A stretch of 38,518 bases of DNA from a virus. Lineage: Duplodnaviria > Heunggongvirae > Uroviricota > Caudoviricetes. Below the pieces are notes generated by a model. It was not told where the DNA came from. It did no database searches and was given only the letters and a program-made list of their open reading frames with translations. Location: the IMG/VR virus record IMGVR_UViG_2671181134_000015. The stretch is one strand, 5' to 3'. A program made the translations under genes and the position numbers. Of the stretch, positions 1,468 to 22,392 are shown piece after piece; position 1 is the stretch's first letter; each line of letters opens with the position of its first letter.

Positions 1468-1835
1468 GGTGCTACTTTCGACCGAACCTTTGGCAACCGG
1501 ATAGCGGGGGCTTTCACCCCCGCTGCGGTTTCTTACGGTTTACACTGCAAGAACGCCGCAAATTCTGACCACATGATGTTAAGTCTGAACTCACACGGCG
1601 AACGGTGTATCATCCAGACTGTCAACAACATGGTTAAGCATAAAATGCTCACGATGATCGTTTTTTGCGGCATAGCGCTTGCTCCTTTTTCAAAGAGGCG
1701 CTAACCTTCCACTTGCGAAGGTTAGATGGTTAGGGCCTCGGGTTAAACAAATGTTTGACTCGGGGCCTTTTCACATCCGGCCTTCAGGTAATCCTTCCAG
1801 CCGTCAGCCGAAAGGCACCCACGTGTAATCTACTG
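1468..1835. repeat. Direct repeat copy A (about 370 bp) carrying a hok-type locus
   Basis: Aligns by eye with 1942-2312 at about 470-bp offset; near-identical across the toxin ORF and more divergent in the leader region upstream of it. Confidence 0.8.
1533..1673 (-). CDS. Hok/Gef-family type I toxin, copy A (46 aa)
   Basis: Minus-strand ORF MPQKTIIVSILCLTMLLTVWMIHRSPCEFRLNIMWSEFAAFLQCKP: N-terminal transmembrane helix, then CEFR and EFAAF resembling the Hok CEIR and EVAAF signatures; GGAG 8 nt upstream of ATG; below the 60-aa cutoff of the ORF track. Confidence 0.6.
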   Translation of the reverse strand: MPQKTIIVSILCLTMLLTVWMIHRSPCEFRLNIMWSEFAAFLQCKP

Positions 1836-1889
1836 ATTTCCCTTTGTGCGCGCAATGCTCAGTGTTGAAACTGTTTAGGGGGGGGCGGC

Positions 1890-1912
1890 AAAAAAGCCCG
1901 CATATTGCGGGC
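1890..1912 (-). terminator. Intrinsic terminator for minus-strand transcripts (hok copy B)
   Basis: GCCCGCA-TAT-TGCGGGC hairpin at 1896-1912 preceded on + strand by A6 (1890-1895), i.e. hairpin followed by U6 on the minus strand. Confidence 0.6.
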
Positions 1913-1941
1913 AAATACGTCTGTAATCCAATGGAGAAAGG

Positions 1942-2312
1942 GGTGCCATATCGACTGAACCCGACAACCGGATAGCGGGGCCGTTCACCCCCGCTGCGGT
2001 TTCTTACTGTTTACACTGCAAGAACGCCGCAAATTCTGACCACATGATGTTAAGTCTGAACTCACACGGCGAACGGTGTATCATCCAGATGGCCAACAAC
2101 ATGGTTAAGCATAAAATGCTCACGATGATCGTTTTTTGCGGCATAGCGCTTGACTCCTTTTACAGGGAGGCGCTAACCTTCCACTTGTCTAGGGTAGGAA
2201 TGGTTAGGGCCTCGGGTTAAACAATATGTTTGACTCGGGGCCTTTCCACATCCGGCCTTCAGGTTTTCCTTCCAGCCGTCAGCCGAAAGGCACCCGCGCG
2301 TAATGTACTGGT
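1942..2312. repeat. Direct repeat copy B carrying the second hok-type locus; right end overlaps the 3' end of ogr
   Basis: Aligns with 1468-1835; see copy A. Confidence 0.8.
2004..2144 (-). CDS. Hok/Gef-family type I toxin, copy B (46 aa)
   Basis: MPQKTIIVSILCLTMLLAIWMIHRSPCEFRLNIMWSEFAAFLQCKQ; intact frame, 3 amino-acid differences from copy A; GGAG upstream. Confidence 0.6.
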   Translation of the reverse strand: MPQKTIIVSILCLTMLLAIWMIHRSPCEFRLNIMWSEFAAFLQCKQ

Positions 2313-2581
2313 TTTAAAGTCATACCGCAATCCTCCAGTTGTAGCGTTAACTGACTGCGTCCCTGATGGGATTTGCGCATTGTCTCCCGTGGAATATCTT
2401 TATCGTGGAAGATCAACTGAGGCTGGCCAATAATTCTGTGCACACTTTCCATTGTTGAAAATGTGGCGCTGCACTCAAGGTTATTGCACTGATAGTATTT
2501 GTAGCGGATGGTGCCGGTATCATTGGCGGCTTTACTGGTACGGATCCGGGCAGATGCGCCGCAGAATGGACAATGAAACAT
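2279..2581 (-). CDS. ogr: Ogr/Delta-type zinc-finger late-gene transcriptional activator
   Basis: MFHCPFCG...YYQCNNLECSATF four-Cys zinc finger as in P2 Ogr; start taken at MFHCP (ORF track extends 17 codons further upstream); about 28 aa longer at the C-terminus than P2 Ogr. Confidence 0.8.
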   Translation of the reverse strand: MFHCPFCGASARIRTSKAANDTGTIRYKYYQCNNLECSATFSTMESVHRIIGQPQLIFHDKDIPRETMRKSHQGRSQLTLQLEDCGMTLKPVHYARVPFG

Positions 2582-2624
2582 CGATATACCCCCTGGCTGA
2601 ACTGGGGTTGAACTCGTCGCTATT

Positions 2625-3749
2625 CTAACCATTGCTTTCCTTTTCGGCTATCCACTCGGGTATTCTTGCCTCCAGTTCAAGCCTTGTGGTGAAGCCGCTT
2701 CCGTCGATATTGTGTTCCACTTTTGCAATGAGCCAGTCCTGATTGTCTATCTCGGTTTTAAAGCCGGTTACCGTGCCATGCATTTCAGGGTAAAGCTCCG
2801 CTCTGCCCCGGGCCAGCGTGATGGAGAATTCAGCCGCACCGCGCTGTAATTGCTGCCACCTGGCGGCAGCTGCGCGCTGTGCAGCAATTTCATTTGGGTA
2901 GGTTTTTCTCAGAACGAACACGTTACCTTCTGCCCCCTCCATGTAGCTGCCTTCCCGGCTGCTGCTCTTTTCAGCGTGAGTTTTTCGTTTTTTTATGTTG
3001 ACGGCTTTCTTTTTGCCATGATTCAAATCCAGCCAGTACGCCTTCACCCCTGTGTATGCCTGGCGATCGGCTATTCTGAACTGGTGACTGTCTCCGTCAC
3101 TGCGTGCCAGTGCAAATGAGGGGAGTGGGCGCCCGTCAGCTGTCACGCCGCCACCCGGCAGAATGAACAGCAGACAGCCATTTTTGACGGTAGTGATGGC
3201 TCCCAGCATATCAGCCATGCGGGTAAGGAATGATATGTCGCTTTCTTCCGTCTGGTCGGCATGATCGATTTCAATATCCATAAGCATATCGCTTATCTGG
3301 GCTTTCAGTCCGTAACGGTGGGCAATAGCGGAAACCACGCGTTCAACAGTCACGTCGTGCCAGGATACTTCCCGTTTGACGTTAAATTCCTCCCTGAAGT
3401 CTGCGCTGTTTGCACTCAGTGTCAGCCGCTCCGGAGGTCCTTCATGAGCGACCTCATCAACAATGTAGGTGCCTTTATCAACCAGAGGTTCTCCCTTCCA
3501 TCCCAGCATGACTCTGATGTGTGTTCCCCGCCCGGGGAGAGCCAGCTGCCCGTCGGCATCATCCAGCACAAGAGTGACCCTGTCTGCTTCAAACCCCCGG
3601 TTGTCTGTCATGGAAAGCGATATCACCCGGTTATTCAGTTCCTGAAGAGTGTTTTTATCCTGCTCCCTGTCCAGTGAAACGCTGAAATCAGGCATTTTCA
3701 CCAGTTCTTTCAGGGGGGAATAAACCGTGTTACCGTTCAGCAATACCAT
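2625..3749 (-). CDS. P2 gpD-like tail protein (late control gene D)
   Basis: Motifs TDNRGFEAD, EVSWHD and FSITLARGRA as recalled for P2 gpD; start set at MVLLNGN (3749) with GGAGGA RBS; the 491-aa ORF in the track over-extends into the intergenic region. Confidence 0.8.
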   Translation of the reverse strand: MVLLNGNTVYSPLKELVKMPDFSVSLDREQDKNTLQELNNRVISLSMTDNRGFEADRVTLVLDDADGQLALPGRGTHIRVMLGWKGEPLVDKGTYIVDEVAHEGPPERLTLSANSADFREEFNVKREVSWHDVTVERVVSAIAHRYGLKAQISDMLMDIEIDHADQTEESDISFLTRMADMLGAITTVKNGCLLFILPGGGVTADGRPLPSFALARSDGDSHQFRIADRQAYTGVKAYWLDLNHGKKKAVNIKKRKTHAEKSSSREGSYMEGAEGNVFVLRKTYPNEIAAQRAAAARWQQLQRGAAEFSITLARGRAELYPEMHGTVTGFKTEIDNQDWLIAKVEHNIDGSGFTTRLELEARIPEWIAEKESNG

Positions 3750-3903
3750 AATTCCTCCGTTTTTCCCGCCACAGTTGCATACCAGAAACACCACCGGAAT
3801 GAGTTTGGGTTGTATGTGTATTGCGAGAAACCGCAGTTCGTGAAAAAGCTCCCCGTGTTCGTAAAGATCTCTGCTGAACTCACACGAATGCAGGGTGAAT
3901 AAT

Positions 3904-5091
3904 ATGGCTGAAACCCGTTTCCATGGCGTGCGGGTCCGGGAGAATGCGGATCTGGTCACGGCCATTAATGATATTGACTCCAGTGTGATTGGTATCGTGG
4001 CTGTTGCTGATGATGCTGATGCAAAAACATTTCCGCTGGATAAGCCGGTGCTCCTGACGCGTGTCATGGATGTGCTGGGTAAGGCCGGAAAAACCGGCAC
4101 GCTGTATAAAAGTCTGAAAGCTATTGCCGATCAGGTCAGCACCAGAGTTGTTGTGGTGCGGGTTGCTGCTGCGAAGGAGGGGGATGGTCAGCCGACACAA
4201 ACGCAGCTTGTTATTGGTGAGGTCAAAAATGACGGAACCTATACAGGCATGCAGGCGCTCCTGGTGGCTGAACAGAATGAGGCTGTTGGTGTTCGTCCCA
4301 GGATCCTGGCCGTGCCATCGCTTGACACCAAAGAGGTGGTGGCGGCACTGGTAACCGTCGCGAAAAAGCTGCGTGCCTTTGTGTATGCGGGCTGTCCCGG
4401 CTGTAATACCGTGCAGGAGGCTGTCACCTGGCGCGCCGATCTTGCTCACCGTGAAGTTATGCTGATCTGGCCTGATTTTATCGCGTACAACCCTAACAGT
4501 GGCCAGAATGAGGCTTTTCCTGCATCTGCGTATGCGTGCGGGTTGCGTGCGAAGATTGACCACGAGCAGGGCTGGCATAAATCCCTGTCCAATGTGGCAG
4601 TGAATAATGTCCTGGGTATTTCTGTGCCGGTGTTCTGGTCGCTCCAGGCAGAGGACAGTGACGCGGAAACCCTCAATGACAAGGAGATCACCACACTCAT
4701 TAAACGTAACGGCTTCCGTTTCTGGGGTAACCGGACTCTCGACACCACTACCTACACCTTTGAGACCTACACGCGTACGGCGCAGTCGCTGGCGGATACC
4801 ATCGCCGAATCGCAGTTTGAAACCGTGGACAAGCCGCTGACGCCGTCGAACGTGAAGGATGTGTTAAGCGATATCCGGGCAAAACTGAGTGCCTTTGTGA
4901 CAGCGGGTAAACTTATCGGGGCAGAGTGCTGGTATGACGTGGTGGATAACGGCACAACGGATCTGCGTCAGGGGGTTGTGCGCATTCGCTACAAGTATAC
5001 GCCGGTGCCACCGCTTGAAGATCTTGAGCTTCACCAGACGTTTACCGATGAATTCTTTGCGGGTGCATTTGCATCACTGGGAGGTGAGTAA
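3904..5091 (+). CDS. Contractile tail sheath protein (P2 gpFI-like)
   Basis: TFPLDKPVLLTRV, QGWHKSLSNV, GFRFWGNRT and YTPVPPLE match recalled P2 FI; start at MAETRF. Confidence 0.9.
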   Translation: MAETRFHGVRVRENADLVTAINDIDSSVIGIVAVADDADAKTFPLDKPVLLTRVMDVLGKAGKTGTLYKSLKAIADQVSTRVVVVRVAAAKEGDGQPTQTQLVIGEVKNDGTYTGMQALLVAEQNEAVGVRPRILAVPSLDTKEVVAALVTVAKKLRAFVYAGCPGCNTVQEAVTWRADLAHREVMLIWPDFIAYNPNSGQNEAFPASAYACGLRAKIDHEQGWHKSLSNVAVNNVLGISVPVFWSLQAEDSDAETLNDKEITTLIKRNGFRFWGNRTLDTTTYTFETYTRTAQSLADTIAESQFETVDKPLTPSNVKDVLSDIRAKLSAFVTAGKLIGAECWYDVVDNGTTDLRQGVVRIRYKYTPVPPLEDLELHQTFTDEFFAGAFASLGGE

Positions 5092-5600
5092 TGGCGGTAC
5101 CAAACAAACTTCGCGTTTTCACGGTGTACATCGATGGCGAAAACAAGCTGGGGCGGGTGACGTCCTTCACGTCGCCTAAACTGACCCGAAAAACGGAGTC
5201 CTTCCGTGGTGCCGGGATGCCCGGCAGTGTTTCCGTCGACTTTGGTCTTGATGATGGTGCACTGGATCTCTCTTTTGCGGTAGGCGGCGCAGATGCCCAC
5301 CTTTTCTCCCGTTATGCCGGGTCACTTGATGAAGTCCGTCTTCGCTTTTCCGGTGAGTACTATTCGGATGCGGATATCAGATATGTGGATATTGAGGTCC
5401 GTGGGCGCATCACTGAAATCGATATGGGGGAGGCGAAGCAGGGTGAAGACACTGAGCACAGTTATTCGATGAAAAACACCTGGTACAGACTGAGCGTGGA
5501 TGATCGGGAAAAAATCGAATTTGATGTGCTGAATTTTATCTGGCGCATTGACGGTAAGGATGTGCTGCCGGATCGCACCCGCTCGATGCTGGGCTTCTGA
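5091..5600 (+). CDS. Tail tube protein (P2 gpFII-like)
   Basis: 169 aa immediately after FI with TAATG stop-start overlap; size and position as P2 FII. Confidence 0.85.
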   Translation: MAVPNKLRVFTVYIDGENKLGRVTSFTSPKLTRKTESFRGAGMPGSVSVDFGLDDGALDLSFAVGGADAHLFSRYAGSLDEVRLRFSGEYYSDADIRYVDIEVRGRITEIDMGEAKQGEDTEHSYSMKNTWYRLSVDDREKIEFDVLNFIWRIDGKDVLPDRTRSMLGF

Positions 5601-5647
5601 TGATGGTTTAACAGAGAACGGCGGGGATCCCGCCGTGGAGACTGAAA

Positions 5648-6037
5648 ATGGATAAAGAAACGGAAATGACCACTGACACTGCCGTCAGTAACGGGGAGGC
5701 TTCCGCGGTGGCGGTTGCCGCTACGGCTGCACCTAAGAACGTGGTGAAGCTGACGGTGCCTGTTGTGCGCGGAGATGTGTCGTACAGTGAAATTAAAATC
5801 GGTCCGCTGGCGAATCAGGCCGGATCGCTGCGTGGGCTGTCTTTGCTTGCGCTTTACAACATGAACTGTGATGCCATGGTCACCTGGCTTGCGCGTGTGA
5901 CAGAGCCAAAACTCAAGGAGGCCGAAATGTATGCCATGAATGTGGCGGATTTTACGGCGCTGAGCTCGGCGGCGGTTAATTTTTTCGCACCCTCGGGGTC
6001 GAATGCACCGGCACCGGAGAACACGGCAGAGCCGTAA
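5648..6037 (+). CDS. Tail assembly chaperone gpE-like (zero-frame product)
   Basis: Position between tail tube and tape measure; slippery heptamer near its 3' end (see 5980-5986). Confidence 0.7.
   Translation: MDKETEMTTDTAVSNGEASAVAVAATAAPKNVVKLTVPVVRGDVSYSEIKIGPLANQAGSLRGLSLLALYNMNCDAMVTWLARVTEPKLKEAEMYAMNVADFTALSSAAVNFFAPSGSNAPAPENTAEP
5980..5986 (+). other. Slippery heptamer T TTT TTC for programmed -1 frameshift giving the E+E' fusion chaperone (extension open to TAA at 6193-6195)
   Basis: X XXY YYZ site in the E frame; the -1 frame is open from 5986 to 6195 and overlaps the tape-measure start, as in the P2 E/E' and lambda G/GT arrangement. Confidence 0.55.
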
Positions 6038-6184
6038 CCTGTCTTTGCTTTGACTGCATTGAAGATCCCGTTGCGGATATTGCTGTTATTTTTAACTGGC
6101 CGCCCGCAGAGATATTTGCAATGACGCCTGCAGAGGTGGTCGCCTGGCGTGAGCGGGCGGCTGCCAGAAGCGGAAGTCACAATC

Positions 6185-8977
6185 ATGATGAATAATCTGC
6201 ATATCAGGGTTGCTCTGGCGGCGGCAGACACCCTGACACAACCTCTCAGGCGCGCCCGCGAAACCGTGGGCGCGCTTTCTGATTCCCTCCGTGAAACTCA
6301 GGACTCCATCCGCTCGCTTGAACGGCAGAGTGAAGCCTTTGCTGCGGCACAGACTAAATTTGACGAAGCCACCCGGAAAATTGCCGCTGTTCAGCAGCAA
6401 CTGAACCGTCTGCAGCAGGCGGAGCGTGAGGGTACCGTGCTCAGTGAACGGCAGCGTGAAATGATGGCTTCGCTGACCACCCGGCTTGAACGTCTGAACC
6501 GGGTGAGGGATGTACATCAGCGACGCCTGGAGGATTCACGCCGGGAGCTGGAGAGACACGGTATTGCCGCAGAGGGCAGCAGTCAGACCATACAGGCAGC
6601 CATTCGCCGGACGGCAGAGTATAACGAAGAGCTGGCGCGACAGCGGCAGGCGCTCGCACAGGTGACCCGTGCACAGCAACGCTATGAACAGGCGCAGGAG
6701 CGACTCGGGCGGATACGTAATGCCGGTGCGGCGGCACTGGCTGCCGGTGCAGCAGGACTTTACGCTGGCGGGCGTGCTGTTGCGCCGGTGATGGATCTCC
6801 AGCGTCATGGTGCCGTCATTGCGGCTCAGGCAGGAGAGGGCGCGTCAGATGCCGTGGGGTATACCGGGGTTATAAACCACATGGTTCATACCGGTATCAC
6901 ACCGGATGCACAACTGGCGGCTGAAGCTGTGGGTGCTGTCCGCTCCACTCTGGGTGGGCTGGGGGCGGTTAGTGAGAATGAACTGACCCGAATCACCCGA
7001 AAAATGCTGGATATGCAGGCCGTGATGGGGGGCGATATCCCGCAGCACATTCAGGCGGCTGCCATCATGATCAAAAACGGTCTTGCACGCAGCAGTGACG
7101 AGGCGGTTGATCTGATGGTGGCGGGCATGCAGCGCATGGGGCCGGTTATGCGCGATGAGCTGCCTGAGATCCTTCACGAGTATTCGACCCATTTTCGTAA
7201 CATGGGGCTGACAGGGTCGGAAACCATGACGCTCCTTGCGGATATGGCGCAGCAGGGGAAGTTTGCGCTGGATAAAACCGGCGATGCCATCAAGGAGTTC
7301 AGTATTCGCGGCTCCGATATGTCAAAGGCGAGTGCTGAAGCGTATGCGCTTATCGGGCTGGATGCAGCCAGGATGTCATCGGCTGTAGCCAGTGGTGGAA
7401 CGGCTGCACGGGCTGCGCTGCAGAAAACAGCCTCGGGTCTGTTGCAGATCGTCGATCCGGCTGAGCGGGCCAATGCGGCCATCGCACTTTTTGGTACACC
7501 GGTTGAAGATCTGTCTGTCGATCAAATCCCTGCCTTTCTTGGCGCGCTGGCGCGGGTGTCTGACCGTATGGCTGACGTGTCTGGTGTGGCGGACCGGATG
7601 GGGCAAACCCTGCGTGACAATCTGAGTGGTGATGTGGCGCGGCTTACCGGGACGTTCAGCGCGCTGAGAAGTGGGATTATCGGGGAGATTACGGACGATC
7701 TGCGTGGGCTTGTCCGGATGGCCACAGCGTGGGGTGAGCGTCTGCAGGCGTGGGTGAATGCGCATCCGGAACTGGTGCGAATGATTGCGCTGACGACGGG
7801 AGCGGTGCTGGCGTTAACCACAGCGATGGGGGCGTTGTCCGTTGCGGCCTGGATGGTTGTCGCACCGTTACTGAAACTGCGTCTGGGGCTTGCCCTGCTT
7901 CGCGCGATCCCGGCCGGACTCTCTGTTGCCGGTACGCTGTTTGGCGGACTGACGGGTGTGATTTCAGCCGTGGGGGCTGCGCTGGGGGCGCTGACCTGGC
8001 CGGTTGTGGTGGCGGTGGGAGCCCTGGTCGGTGGTGCTCTGCTGATCTGGCGCTACTGGGATCGGGTCAGGGCGTTTGTGAGCGGATTTATTGAAGGGGT
8101 ACAGTCAGCACTGGCGCCCTTCATGGCGACAGCCTCCCGTTTTGCGCCGCTGCTGGATCTGGTTTCAGGGGCACTGTCCCGTATTCTGGGATGGTTTAAA
8201 TCCCTGTTAACGCCGGTCTCCTCCACGCGTGATTTGCTTGAGCAGTGCACCTCTGCCGGGCAGACGTTCGGGAGCACTCTGGCCGGTGCGTTAGCCACGG
8301 TTTTTTCGCCCCTGAAAGCTCTGATTGACGGTCTGGCGTGGGTGCTGGAAAAACTCGGTGTTCTGCCCGGTGAAGCTGAGCGGGTTAAGCGAAAACTGGA
8401 TGAGGCCCGTAAAACGCCGGTGGCATGGGAGTGGGATCCGGAACAGAAAAAAATGGTTCAGAAGGCGTGGCACTGGTCGCCTCCTGGTGGGGCCAGTGTG
8501 CCTTCCGGCGCCTCCGGTACACAGCCTCCGCCGGTGGCGCTCCCTGCGGGGATAGCGCCGGACGGTAACCGTAACGTTCTCCGTCACCTGAAAGGCATTG
8601 AGGGGAATACCGGTGGTCTGCTGGCTGAAAACCGTAAACGTATCGGACCCGGAGATATTGTGTTTAAACATCTTCCACGGGCGCTGGCGGTCCGGGGGCA
8701 GTGGCATGAACCTGTCGTTGCGCCGTCTTCCGGCGGAATGCGCGCGCTGCCACAGGAGGAGATTCAGGTGCAGCAATGGCCGACGGCACGCCCGGCGCCA
8801 CGAATGCACCAGCAGGAAACCTTCGCCAGCGCCTTTCAGGGGGAGATACATGTGCATCTTCACGGGGTGAGTTCGCATAATCCCCGGGAACTGGCGCGCA
8901 TGGTTGGTGACGCTGTCAGGGCGGAAATGAACAGAATGGCACGTGCCGGAACCGGCAGCTTCCGCGATCGCGACTGA
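6185..8977 (+). CDS. Tail tape measure protein (P2 gpT-like)
   Basis: About 930 aa, coiled-coil N-terminal region, Gly/Ala-rich hydrophobic segment, directly after E/E'; start taken at MMNNLHIR. Confidence 0.85.
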   Translation: MMNNLHIRVALAAADTLTQPLRRARETVGALSDSLRETQDSIRSLERQSEAFAAAQTKFDEATRKIAAVQQQLNRLQQAEREGTVLSERQREMMASLTTRLERLNRVRDVHQRRLEDSRRELERHGIAAEGSSQTIQAAIRRTAEYNEELARQRQALAQVTRAQQRYEQAQERLGRIRNAGAAALAAGAAGLYAGGRAVAPVMDLQRHGAVIAAQAGEGASDAVGYTGVINHMVHTGITPDAQLAAEAVGAVRSTLGGLGAVSENELTRITRKMLDMQAVMGGDIPQHIQAAAIMIKNGLARSSDEAVDLMVAGMQRMGPVMRDELPEILHEYSTHFRNMGLTGSETMTLLADMAQQGKFALDKTGDAIKEFSIRGSDMSKASAEAYALIGLDAARMSSAVASGGTAARAALQKTASGLLQIVDPAERANAAIALFGTPVEDLSVDQIPAFLGALARVSDRMADVSGVADRMGQTLRDNLSGDVARLTGTFSALRSGIIGEITDDLRGLVRMATAWGERLQAWVNAHPELVRMIALTTGAVLALTTAMGALSVAAWMVVAPLLKLRLGLALLRAIPAGLSVAGTLFGGLTGVISAVGAALGALTWPVVVAVGALVGGALLIWRYWDRVRAFVSGFIEGVQSALAPFMATASRFAPLLDLVSGALSRILGWFKSLLTPVSSTRDLLEQCTSAGQTFGSTLAGALATVFSPLKALIDGLAWVLEKLGVLPGEAERVKRKLDEARKTPVAWEWDPEQKKMVQKAWHWSPPGGASVPSGASGTQPPPVALPAGIAPDGNRNVLRHLKGIEGNTGGLLAENRKRIGPGDIVFKHLPRALAVRGQWHEPVVAPSSGGMRALPQEEIQVQQWPTARPAPRMHQQETFASAFQGEIHVHLHGVSSHNPRELARMVGDAVRAEMNRMARAGTGSFRDRD

Positions 8978-8987
8978 GGTGAAAAAG

Positions 8988-9479
8988 ATGATGATGATTT
9001 ATGGGATGTTTGTGTTTCAGTTAAGTACCCTGCCGCATCAGCAGGTGGAACAGAGTAAACGCTGGCGACACGTCAGTAATGAACGGGTTAACCGTTCATC
9101 CTCCTGGCAGTATATTGGCTCTGGTGAAGATCACATCACGATGTCCGGTGTGCTCTGTCCGGAAATCACCGGCGGGGAGGTGTCACTGACTGCCCTGAAC
9201 ACCCTGGCCTACACAGGATTACCCTGGCCACTGATTGATGGTGTCGGACAGATTTACGGGATGTATGTCATTACGGAAATCAGGACCACCCGTCAGGAGC
9301 TGGATCGCTATGGCATGGCCCGCAAAATTGAGTTCACTGTCAGCTTTCAGCGATGCAATGAAGATCTGCGTGAGCGTCTTCAGTCGGGCTCGGTGGGTGA
9401 TCTGATGGCAGGATTAAAAAACAGCGCGTCGTCGGCCCTGTCGTCGGCGTCCTCTGCGCTGTCTGGTCTCATGTTGTGA
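8988..9479 (+). CDS. Tail protein gpU-like
   Basis: 163 aa after the tape measure; GAGGTG RBS; size as P2 U. Confidence 0.75.
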   Translation: MMMIYGMFVFQLSTLPHQQVEQSKRWRHVSNERVNRSSSWQYIGSGEDHITMSGVLCPEITGGEVSLTALNTLAYTGLPWPLIDGVGQIYGMYVITEIRTTRQELDRYGMARKIEFTVSFQRCNEDLRERLQSGSVGDLMAGLKNSASSALSSASSALSGLML

Positions 9480-9489
9480 AGGTCACTGT

Positions 9490-22374: not shown

Positions 22375-22392
22375 TGTATGGCGACGGGGACA
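22375..22392. promoter_or_regulatory. TGT-N12-ACA dyad (Ogr-type late-promoter activator site) in the divergent O/P intergenic region
   Basis: Exact TGTATGGCGACGGGGACA; centred about 55-65 bp from the proposed O (22302) and P (22458) start codons. Confidence 0.4.

Follow-up and report, generated by a model that had tools for sequence, protein, structure and literature searches.

In phage P2, the tail genes FI-FII-E-T-U-D-ogr form a single co-oriented unit that is separated from the preceding H-G by Z/fun, and D has no promoter of its own. The DNA studied here, a viral stretch of 38,518 nucleotides (IMG/VR record IMGVR_UViG_2671181134_000015; this whole stretch is called the window below), departs from that order: the block from FI to U lies on the plus strand, between D and ogr on one side and the fibre genes on the other, both of which lie on the minus strand. 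A first-pass annotation had offered 2 explanations, a genuine inversion of roughly 5.7 kb in the window itself or an assembly artefact. This raises the question of whether the block was wrongly joined, whether it switches orientation, or whether it simply belongs where it is. We find that the order (ogr and D leftward, FI to U rightward, and G, H, I, J, W and V leftward again) is the normal one in the branch of P2-like phages from which the window comes, and is neither an error nor a switch. In other words, the flipped sheath-to-U block is real yet ordinary for its branch, and reflects no recent event.

A P2-like prophage with D and FI in divergent orientation

Gene identities and strands were assigned from open reading frames, PHROGs and Pfam, and start and stop codons were checked. 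On the minus strand lies an ogr-like late activator gene of 100 aa (2279..2581; Pfam Ogr_Delta, E = 5e-16), whose verified ATG is identical to the PGAP start in an E. coli copy, and which is located 43 nt downstream of the stop codon of D. D itself, encoding the baseplate hub/late control protein gpD (2625..3749, minus strand; phrog_52, E = 7e-150; Pfam Phage_GPD), is divergent from FI, and its product shares 47% identity with P2 D and 66-78% with the D proteins of the inverted clade described below. The plus-strand block consists of the tail sheath gene FI (3904..5091; phrog_23, E = 8e-117), the tail tube gene FII (5091..5600; phrog_55, E = 1e-54; named "phage major tail tube protein" by PGAP), the tail chaperone gene E (5648-6037, or 5648..6195 for E+E'; phrog_103, with Pfam Phage_P2_GpE on 6058-6195), the tape measure gene T (6185..8977; phrog_28, E = 2e-105) and the tail protein gene U (8988..9479; Pfam Phage_P2_GpU, E = 8e-39). 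The starts used for T and U, 6185 and 8988, are those of PGAP in a 99%-identical E. coli copy, and differ from the starts of the longest open reading frames. E contains a slippery heptamer, T_TTT_TTC, at 5980-5986, and the -1 frame is open from 5980 to 6195, which indicates that E/E' would be made by a programmed -1 frameshift at a T-rich heptamer, as in P2.

The minus strand resumes with a gene in the position of G (9490..10077; Pfam DUF4376, E = 5e-18; phrog_1141), a putative tail fibre assembly protein or chaperone, followed by the tail fibre gene H (10089..11429; Pfam Phage_tail_fib and Phage_fiber_2) and by I (11429..12061). Using tblastn, the G-position protein had no match in P2 or in the other loci fetched, except in the near-identical E. 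coli copy; judged by its place, the DUF4376 gene is a positional analogue of P2 G, without detectable homology to it.

The gene set as a whole is that of P2, and comprises Q, P, O, N, M, L, X, lysis genes, R, S, V, W, J, I, H, FI, FII, E/E', T, U and D (from PHROGs, Pfam and the PGAP names in the 99%-identical copy). Proteins V, W, J, I, H, FI, FII, T, U, D and Ogr have tblastn matches to P2, at identities of only 27-55%, and an Ogr/Delta zinc-finger late activator gene adjoins D, as expected of a P2-like phage. The window contains an intact P2-like (Peduoviridae) prophage, adjoining serS. Most of the layout given by the first-pass annotation was borne out: the identities and strands of FI to U (plus) and of G/H and D/ogr (minus), the gap of 154 bp between D and FI, and the gap of 10 bp between the convergent stop codons of U and G could all be read from the sequence. 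The P2 record likewise agrees with its account of FI-FII-E-T-U-D as co-oriented after H-G, relative to which the block is inverted. Z/fun is absent from the prophage, as it had stated, and our results support its view that D, cut off physically from FI-U, must have a promoter of its own.

The inverted order is shared by a branch of enterobacterial P2-like phages

The first-pass annotation had stated that its reading would fall if related complete phages natively had this orientation, and such phages do exist. Phage P88_4B11 has the layout V W J I H G (plus strand), U T E' E FII FI (minus strand), D ogr (plus strand), and the same layout is found in SEN5, phiT5282H and KSP20. Orientation sorts with protein similarity: all 25 genome loci with FI identities of 68-77% to the window are inverted, and P2 and the loci at 47-51% are all canonical. 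The 25 inverted prophages span about 15 enterobacterial genera, and 56 loci, including P2, keep the canonical order V-W-J-I-H-FI-FII-E-T-U-D-ogr. The 32 inverted loci fall into a single clade in each of 3 neighbor-joining trees (FI, D and U), and the window lies inside it every time. The window also has the arrangement that defines this clade (D divergent from FI, FI-U convergent with the fibre genes), and its D-FI gap of 154 bp falls within the clade range of 146-181 bp. The order is thus native and fixed in a monophyletic branch. Members of this branch make infectious particles (PMC5285337, PMC6456863, PMC5261728, PMC9826266), and P88, phiSM and SEN4/5 have been isolated as plaque-forming phages (PMC5285337, PMC6456863, PMC5261728).

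The closest described systems are P88 and P88_4B11 (Peduoviridae, genus Xuanwuvirus) and the Citrobacter phage phiSM, which have the same module order and strands, with hok-like genes after D and ogr. Both P88 and phiSM are functional temperate phages (PMC5285337, PMC6456863). In the P88-like phages, FI and D are 76% and 77% identical to those of the window (FI is 48% identical to that of P2). They differ from the window in having a Tfa-type assembly gene where it has the DUF4376 gene, and a DNA invertase with an invertible fibre segment between G and U where it has the 10-bp gap. Only 8-22% of the window DNA aligns to their records, at about 75% identity: for P88, P88_4B11 and phiSM, 8% of 2200-12100 and 12-22% of 12100-37000, at 73-76%. 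By the ICTV guideline, genomes of one genus share about 70% nucleotide identity along their full length. With so little of its DNA aligning, the window prophage does not group with Xuanwuvirus by this measure and probably belongs to a genus other than that of P88. Salmonella SEN4/5 (Senquatrovirus), Enterobacter phiT5282H (Novemvirus) and Serratia KSP20 also share D divergent from FI and FI-U converging on a fibre assembly gene, with FI identities of 59-73% to the window; their accessory genes and integration modules differ from those of the window, and their gaps between U and the fibre genes measure 155-204 bp, compared with 10 bp in the window.

The arrangement is thus already known from the annotation of reference genomes in several Peduoviridae genera, as well as from many enterobacterial prophages, and for this reason has little value as a discovery. 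We found no explicit statement on the inversion in the full-text literature on P88, phiSM, SEN4/5, Serratia PP4 and Burkholderia P2-like phages, so that its status as known rests on deposited annotations. For annotators and those scanning genomes, it is a reminder that the P2 gene order is not universal among P2-like phages, and the divergence of D and FI provides a clean synapomorphy by which the branch can be spotted.

Considering all evidence, we judge it very probable that the arrangement is best explained by an ancient inversion of pF-FI..U that is fixed in the branch, with D on a late promoter sharing the pF dyad. The segment carrying the pF promoter, FI, FII, E/E', T and U would have inverted once, long ago, and then become fixed in one branch of the Peduoviridae.

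One activator box between D and FI may serve both directions

If D was cut off from the FI-U operon in this way, its transcription has to be accounted for. The D-FI intergenic region (3750..3903), a putative bidirectional late promoter, contains conserved blocks in an alignment of 26 distinct clade sequences. The first-pass annotation had reported no perfect TGT-N12-ACA dyad here and one-mismatch versions at 3811 and 3815 only; the first part is correct, but a further one-mismatch version starts at 3773. The missing perfect dyad carries no weight in any case, since the annotated activator sites of P2 at pF and pO/pP read TGT-N12-CCA, and the one-mismatch site at 3811 is conserved. Perfect TGT-N12-ACA matches number 8 in the window, compared with 9.3 expected by chance; with the count at chance level and the annotated sites of P2 imperfect, we dropped the perfect match as a promoter criterion.

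The candidate Ogr-type activator box is TGTATGTGTATTGCGAGA (TGT-N12-AGA; 3811..3828, centre 3819.5). A box is present at this place in all 29 distinct clade sequences, with AGA as the right half-site in 22, AGG in 3 and ACA in 4, although these and the following counts overstate the support, as the sequences are related and not independent. The clade alignment gives it as TTTTTGTTGTC-N10-AGA, flanked by conserved blocks on either side. It is the same TGT-N12-AGA in the P88-like phages, has AGA in phiT5282H, and is a perfect TGT-N12-ACA in SEN5 and KSP20. In the window the right half-site is AGA, not ACA. Spacing is conserved as well: the box centre is 84.5 nt from the FI ATG in the window, compared with 82.5 nt for P2 pF and 78.5-88.5 nt in the clade, and 70.5 nt from the D ATG, compared with 68.5-71.5 nt in the clade. 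In an Ogr-dependent late promoter of the P2 type, the TGT-N12-ACA dyad has its centre near -55, the -10 is weak and a -35 is lacking. The gap fits this description, with a box that has one mismatch, as at P2 pF and pO/pP, and a scan of 2200-12100 for promoters and simple terminators, with counts within shuffle expectation, found no sigma-70-like promoter in it.

On the FI side, a -10-like hexamer, AAAGAT, is located at +44..+49 from the box centre (3863..3868, plus strand), and its A2 and T6 are found in 29 of the 29 clade sequences; FI-U would be transcribed rightward from pF, with a predicted start near 3875. On the D side, a TGn plus -10-like hexamer (TG C AACTGT; 3771..3779, minus strand) is found at the mirrored distance from the box, from which D, probably with read-through into ogr, would be transcribed leftward by a second late promoter with a predicted start near 3764. 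At this mirrored +44..+49 offset, A2/T6 is kept in 27 of the 29 sequences and TG at +41/42 in 26, and the element of the window (TGcAACTGT) departs from the clade consensus (GATCCT/AATCAT). In P2, the hexamers GAAACT, TAGCCT and CAATCT are found at the same offset, upstream of annotated late starts.

P2 also provides a precedent for sharing: its record gives one activator site for pO and pP, whose transcription starts (3016 and 3127) lie 111 bp from each other. We propose the same architecture for D and FI, and because the box with its mirrored hexamers shares the geometry of P2 pP/pO, D is most likely transcribed from an Ogr-type late promoter of its own, which draws on the dyad brought along by pF. 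The inversion would have carried pF, with its dyad-symmetric box, to a point about 70 nt ahead of the D start codon; being symmetric, such a box should be usable in either direction. A comparable layout is found elsewhere in the window, where a perfect TGT-N12-ACA box (22375..22392) in the divergent O-P intergenic region has its centre 81.5 nt from the O ATG and 74.5 nt from the P ATG, as at the shared pO/pP site of P2. In the P-O gap of P88_4B11 no clean TGT-N12-ACA was seen, so that this comparison draws on P2 and the window only.

Alternatively, the order could be typical of the lineage just the same, but with D driven from the conserved GC-rich block that precedes it, by an Ogr-independent promoter or through an activator site of its own. 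In most members this block reads ATGATTTCACGCGCGCG; it exceeds a -10 element in size and might be bound by another factor, it has diverged in the window, and the further one-mismatch dyad lies at 3773. That dyad, however, has its centre a mere 32 nt or so from the D ATG, which is too close for a -55 site; moreover, the gap lacks a recognizable sigma-70-like promoter, the D-side hexamer keeps its exact mirrored offset in nearly all sequences, and P2 pP/pO is a direct precedent for one shared site. We therefore consider a separate D promoter unlikely. The full form of the shared-box reading, in which the gap is a single-dyad, bidirectional, Ogr-dependent promoter made by the inversion, and D (with ogr by read-through) was rescued by the other face of the box, we put at about even odds. 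If true, this would be a naturally occurring example in which an operon was split and its parts then came to share a promoter. The conserved region would then offer a compact, testable example of one dyad serving 2 divergent late promoters, and would extend the pP/pO precedent of P2 to tail genes.

Predicted convergent transcription at the U-G junction

At the other end of the block, the gap between the convergent stop codons of U and the G-like gene is 10 bp long (9480..9489; AGGTCACTGT). The FI-U transcript and the fibre operon would converge here, probably ending inside each other's last gene, and the late transcripts may have overlapping 3' ends. A simple terminator scan of 2200-12100 found nothing at this gap, with counts within shuffle expectation. 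RNA folding points to a candidate terminator-like hairpin at 9533..9573 (plus strand), within the 3' end of the G-like gene, at which the FI-U transcript could end; it has a 9-bp GC-rich stem, an 11-nt loop and a CTCTTTTTT tail, and escaped the simple scan, which allowed loops of up to 8 nt. For the minus-strand fibre operon, a weak candidate with a large loop and a T-run is found inside the 3' end of U (9411..9464), its fold stability not above that of shuffled sequence. In general, the hairpins with T-runs in the folds of this junction were no more stable than shuffled sequence.

Direction and age of the inversion

The change could also have run the other way, with the D-FI-divergent order ancestral and the co-linear F operon of P2 derived. 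In the midpoint-rooted FI tree, the 2 arrangements are reciprocally monophyletic sister clades, which does not polarize the change. The inverted clade is, however, nested inside canonical loci in the neighbor-joining trees of D and U, and the inverted order occurs in Enterobacterales only, while the canonical order is found in Enterobacterales, Pseudomonas, Burkholderia, Oligella, Paracidovorax and Oceanospirillaceae. Furthermore, U and D as a rule adjoin each other in the same orientation in contractile tail clusters further removed from P2, such as that of Mu. As the FI tree is silent here, the canonical-to-inverted direction draws on the D and U trees and on this adjacency, and we regard the reverse polarity as improbable.

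A strain-specific flip, or a phase-variable segment turned by a Gin/Cin-type invertase, would make the inversion recent or reversible. The window resembles Gin/Cin/Hin-type tail fibre segments in having DNA of opposite orientation in the tail region, and some relatives do have an invertase at one breakpoint: in P88_4B11, a DNA invertase and alternative fibre segments lie between G and U, where the window has the 10-bp gap only. Yet such segments swap alternative fibre tips, whereas the block in the window is 5.7 kb of essential structural genes. PGAP named no invertase in the 99%-identical E. coli copy, and none was found among the window proteins scanned. No inverted repeats were found between 3750-3903 and 9480-9489; the longest inverted pair (3702-3729/8296-8323, 28 nt) is internal to D and T and appears to be a chance match. 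The opposite orientation was found at high identity in none of 5,426 genomes, and a single orientation prevails throughout the clade, even though its proteins have diverged to about 54-70% identity. We therefore reject an active invertible element, and consider a recent or reversible inversion of any kind highly improbable.

Finally, region 2200-12100 is collinear in 12 complete E. coli chromosomes at 95-99.5% identity. A probe across the D-FI junction matched at full length in 11/11 genomes carrying that junction, a probe across the U-G junction did so in 12/12 E. coli genomes, and no high-identity half-matches of either were found among the 5,426 genomes. That the block was mis-oriented when contigs were joined, a reading whose sole support is the prior expectation from the P2 gene order, is consequently rejected and carries almost no probability, as the 12 E. 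coli genomes were assembled independently and have both junctions intact, the layout recurs in the 25 prophages of other genera and in isolated phage genomes, and the conserved intergenic elements keep their register with the gene on either side. Three of the E. coli copies (H29, H31 and H32) show a length difference of about 476 bp; in SCU-106 (H29), the one copy inspected, it falls within the region of the tail fibre gene H, annotated there as pseudogene fragments, and away from the junctions.

Organization of the prophage

The window carries a P2-like prophage oriented opposite to the standard P2 map, with serS (1-1293) as its left-hand neighbour and its right end within an integrase gene (from 37511), both identified by Pfam scan. 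Gene assignments were concordant between an ORF listing, PHROG and Pfam scans and a 99.5%-identical copy in E. coli as annotated by PGAP, and start and stop codons were verified for all listed genes. On the minus strand lie ogr (2279-2581) and D (2625-3749), followed on the plus strand by FI (3904-5091), FII (5091-5600), E (5648-6037, with E' to 6195), T (6185-8977) and U (8988-9479), and then, again on the minus strand, by the gene in the G position (9490-10077), H (10089-11429) and, beyond H, I, J, W and V. The E/E' frameshift signal is intact, with T_TTT_TTC at 5980 and the -1 frame open to 6195. The first-pass annotation had described FI-U as opposite in strand to D/ogr and G/H, with gaps of 154 bp between D and FI and 10 bp between U and G, and all of this holds in the sequence. 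It had also described P2 correctly, whose record shows FI-FII-E-T-U-D-ogr co-oriented after H-G, with Z/fun between; compared with P2, the window belongs to the same family but has a rearranged F module. In one detail it differs: the gene that it called G encodes a DUF4376 protein without detectable similarity to P2 G.

The inversion is neither an assembly artefact nor a switch

The strand arrangement had been read as either a genuine inversion or an assembly artefact. The latter can be rejected: 12 complete E. coli chromosomes match a 9.9-kb probe (2200-12100) collinearly over its whole length (95-99.5% identity), and the two junctions were recovered whole, with one-piece, full-length matches to a 951-bp D|FI probe in 11/11 genomes holding that junction and full-length matches to a 901-bp U|G probe in 12/12 high-identity genomes. 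The remaining U|G matches (75-78%) were to DUF4376 genes of other prophages. An invertible segment can be rejected as well, since none of the half-matches expected from a flipped block occurred among 5,426 genomes, no inverted repeats were found at the two block boundaries, and no invertase is annotated by PGAP in the near-identical E. coli copy. In evolutionary terms the block is a genuine inversion, and neither an artefact nor recent or strain-specific.

In three of the E. coli copies, the match was about 476 bp longer than the query. In SCU-106, the one inspected, the H tail fibre gene (9202-10206 of that locus) is annotated as pseudogene fragments, and at least this copy is probably defective.

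A native gene order in a branch of P2-like phages

What had been presented as an anomaly proved to be the native orientation in related complete phage genomes. In P88_4B11 (genus Xuanwuvirus), one strand carries V W J I H G and, beyond the oppositely oriented U T E' E FII FI, also D and ogr; the same layout occurs in Salmonella phage SEN5 (Senquatrovirus), Enterobacter phage phiT5282H (Novemvirus) and a Serratia KSP20 fragment, in whose record the depositors labelled a minus-strand 'gpD-like' gene adjoining a plus-strand 'gpFI-like' gene. We also searched one-genome-per-species bacterial assemblies with FI, which yielded 80 loci. All 25 loci with 68-77% FI identity have the order ogr- D- | FI+ FII+ E+ T+ U+, and any fibre and baseplate genes found with them occupy the minus strand (H- I- J- W- V-), with a single exception in Trabulsiella. 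Their genera include Citrobacter, Salmonella, Edwardsiella, Enterobacter, Kosakonia, Symbiopectobacterium, Erwinia, Pantoea, Trabulsiella, Izhakiella, Mixta, Klebsiella and Kluyvera. All loci with 47-51% FI identity are canonically co-linear, as is P2 itself (48%).

In neighbour-joining trees of FI, D and U, built from 32 inverted and 56 canonical loci with extra phages included, the inverted loci were monophyletic in all three and nested within the canonical loci in the D and U trees, which points to a single, old inversion that has since become fixed. The window prophage works like P88, SEN4 and KSP20-type phages, and both its gene order and the phylogeny of FI, D and U place it in their clade. 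Only 8-22% of its DNA aligns to P88-like records, at about 75% identity, placing it outside the genus Xuanwuvirus at the nucleotide level. Members of the inverted branch are functional: P88 can be induced and forms plaques (PMC5285337), phiSM is released spontaneously and lysogenises K-12 (PMC6456863), and SEN4/5 and the KSP20-like PP4 form myovirus particles (PMC5261728, PMC9826266). An explicit description of the inversion was not found in the published papers searched; anyone consulting the public records of several reference phages can nevertheless see the arrangement in their annotation, so the finding is already known, and only the single-dyad bidirectional promoter that we infer between D and FI is modestly new.

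The Trabulsiella odontotermitis locus (14161-17000) is the only one in the inverted clade with I and H homologues co-stranded with FI-U, following U on the plus strand. It also lacks a D start at the usual distance, and may have been rearranged again or be degraded or tailocin-like.

A candidate shared late promoter between D and FI

The D|FI gap indeed lacks a perfect TGT-N12-ACA dyad, but this is uninformative, because the P2 pF and pO/pP sites are themselves imperfect (TGT-N12-CCA) and perfect dyads are no commoner than chance in the whole window (8 observed, 9.3 expected). When the 200-nt stretches preceding FI in 26 distinct clade members are aligned, five blocks stand out as conserved, in a region flanked by proteins that are only ~70% identical: the start codon of D with its ribosome-binding site, a block on the D side, a central box TTTTTGTTGTC-N10-AGA(C), G.GATTAT on the FI side and the leader of FI. 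The one-mismatch site previously noted at 3811 is real, being the window copy of this central box (3811-3828). Among 29 distinct sequences, the box is TGT-N12-AGA in 22, while the right half reads AGG in three and a perfect ACA in four (SEN5, KSP20 and the inverted loci L023 and L026). From its centre to the FI ATG the distance is 78.5-88.5 nt in the clade (84.5 in the window, 82.5 for P2 pF), and to the D ATG 68.5-71.5 nt (70.5 in the window). At +44 to +49 from the centre, a -10-like hexamer on the FI side (AAAGAT, 3863-3868) has A2 and T6 in 29/29 sequences; the mirrored D-side hexamer has them in 27/29, with TG at +41/42 in 26/29 (TG-C-AACTGT, 3779-3771 in the window). Hexamers at the identical offset precede the annotated P2 late starts (pO GAAACT, pP TAGCCT, pV CAATCT).

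P2 itself has such a design, with one annotated activator binding site (3057-3087) serving divergent pP and pO, whose transcription starts (3016 and 3127) each lie 55.5 nt from the dyad centre. In the O|P gap of the window, a perfect TGT-N12-ACA is found at 22375-22392, with the start codons on either side at distances of 81.5 and 74.5 nt, suggesting that the central-dyad design is used there also. The most economical reading of this comparative anatomy is probably that D and FI share one dyad: the inversion would have carried pF and its symmetric activator site to D's side, leaving pF as the promoter of FI-U (predicted start near 3875) and giving D a leftward late promoter (predicted start near 3764, with a 14-nt leader containing GGAGG). 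Since ogr lies on the same strand 43 nt downstream of D, read-through from D would keep late Ogr feedback, the counterpart of F-operon read-through in P2, whose record lists a single terminator for the ogr transcript and the F operon alike.

The D-ogr spacing of 43 nt (2582-2624) compares with 81 nt, including annotated -35/-10 elements, in P2; an Ogr-independent early ogr promoter would need to sit within the 3' end of D. Another perfect dyad (14388-14405) lies inside S and precedes the V start by ~520 bp. Because S overlaps V, there is no intergenic pV region like that of P2, and the dyad is either a pV-type promoter or a chance match, given the window-wide frequency.

The convergent U|G end

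A terminator scan found no canonical terminator in the 10-bp U|G gap. A plus-strand hairpin with a 9-bp GC-rich stem followed by CTCTTTTTT (9533-9573) lies within the 3' end of the G-like gene, and a weaker minus-strand hairpin with a T-run (9464-9411) within that of U; both fold no better than shuffled sequence and are thus candidates only. In phiT5282H and SEN5, by comparison, 155-204 bp separate U from the neighbouring minus-strand gene, and P88_4B11 has a DNA invertase and an invertible alternative fibre cassette exactly at this junction (14322-16233), both of which the window lineage lacks. Where P88-like relatives have a Tfa-type assembly gene, the window has the DUF4376 gene.

Accessory genes and host neighbours

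Near-identical prophages have different host neighbours, serS in the window and E. coli SCU-106 versus a tRNA-Lys/Val cluster downstream of cpoB in E. coli S19-651, reflecting either different attachment sites or a later rearrangement that moved the prophage. Two tandem Hok/Gef-family toxin genes are annotated just outside ogr in 99%-identical E. coli copies, corresponding to ~1500-2150 (minus strand) of the window, between serS and ogr; in P88_4B11, too, a hok-like gene follows ogr. Finally, a 688-aa ORF (15299-17365, minus strand) that separates the lysis genes from R/S (tail completion) combines DUF1737, a SASA (sialate O-acetylesterase) domain and DUF6645, reminiscent of NanS-p esterases encoded by Stx prophages. 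The ORF has the look of accessory cargo (a 'moron') within a late operon of P2 type, and may be the source of the many matches of 12100-37000 to Stx-converting phages.
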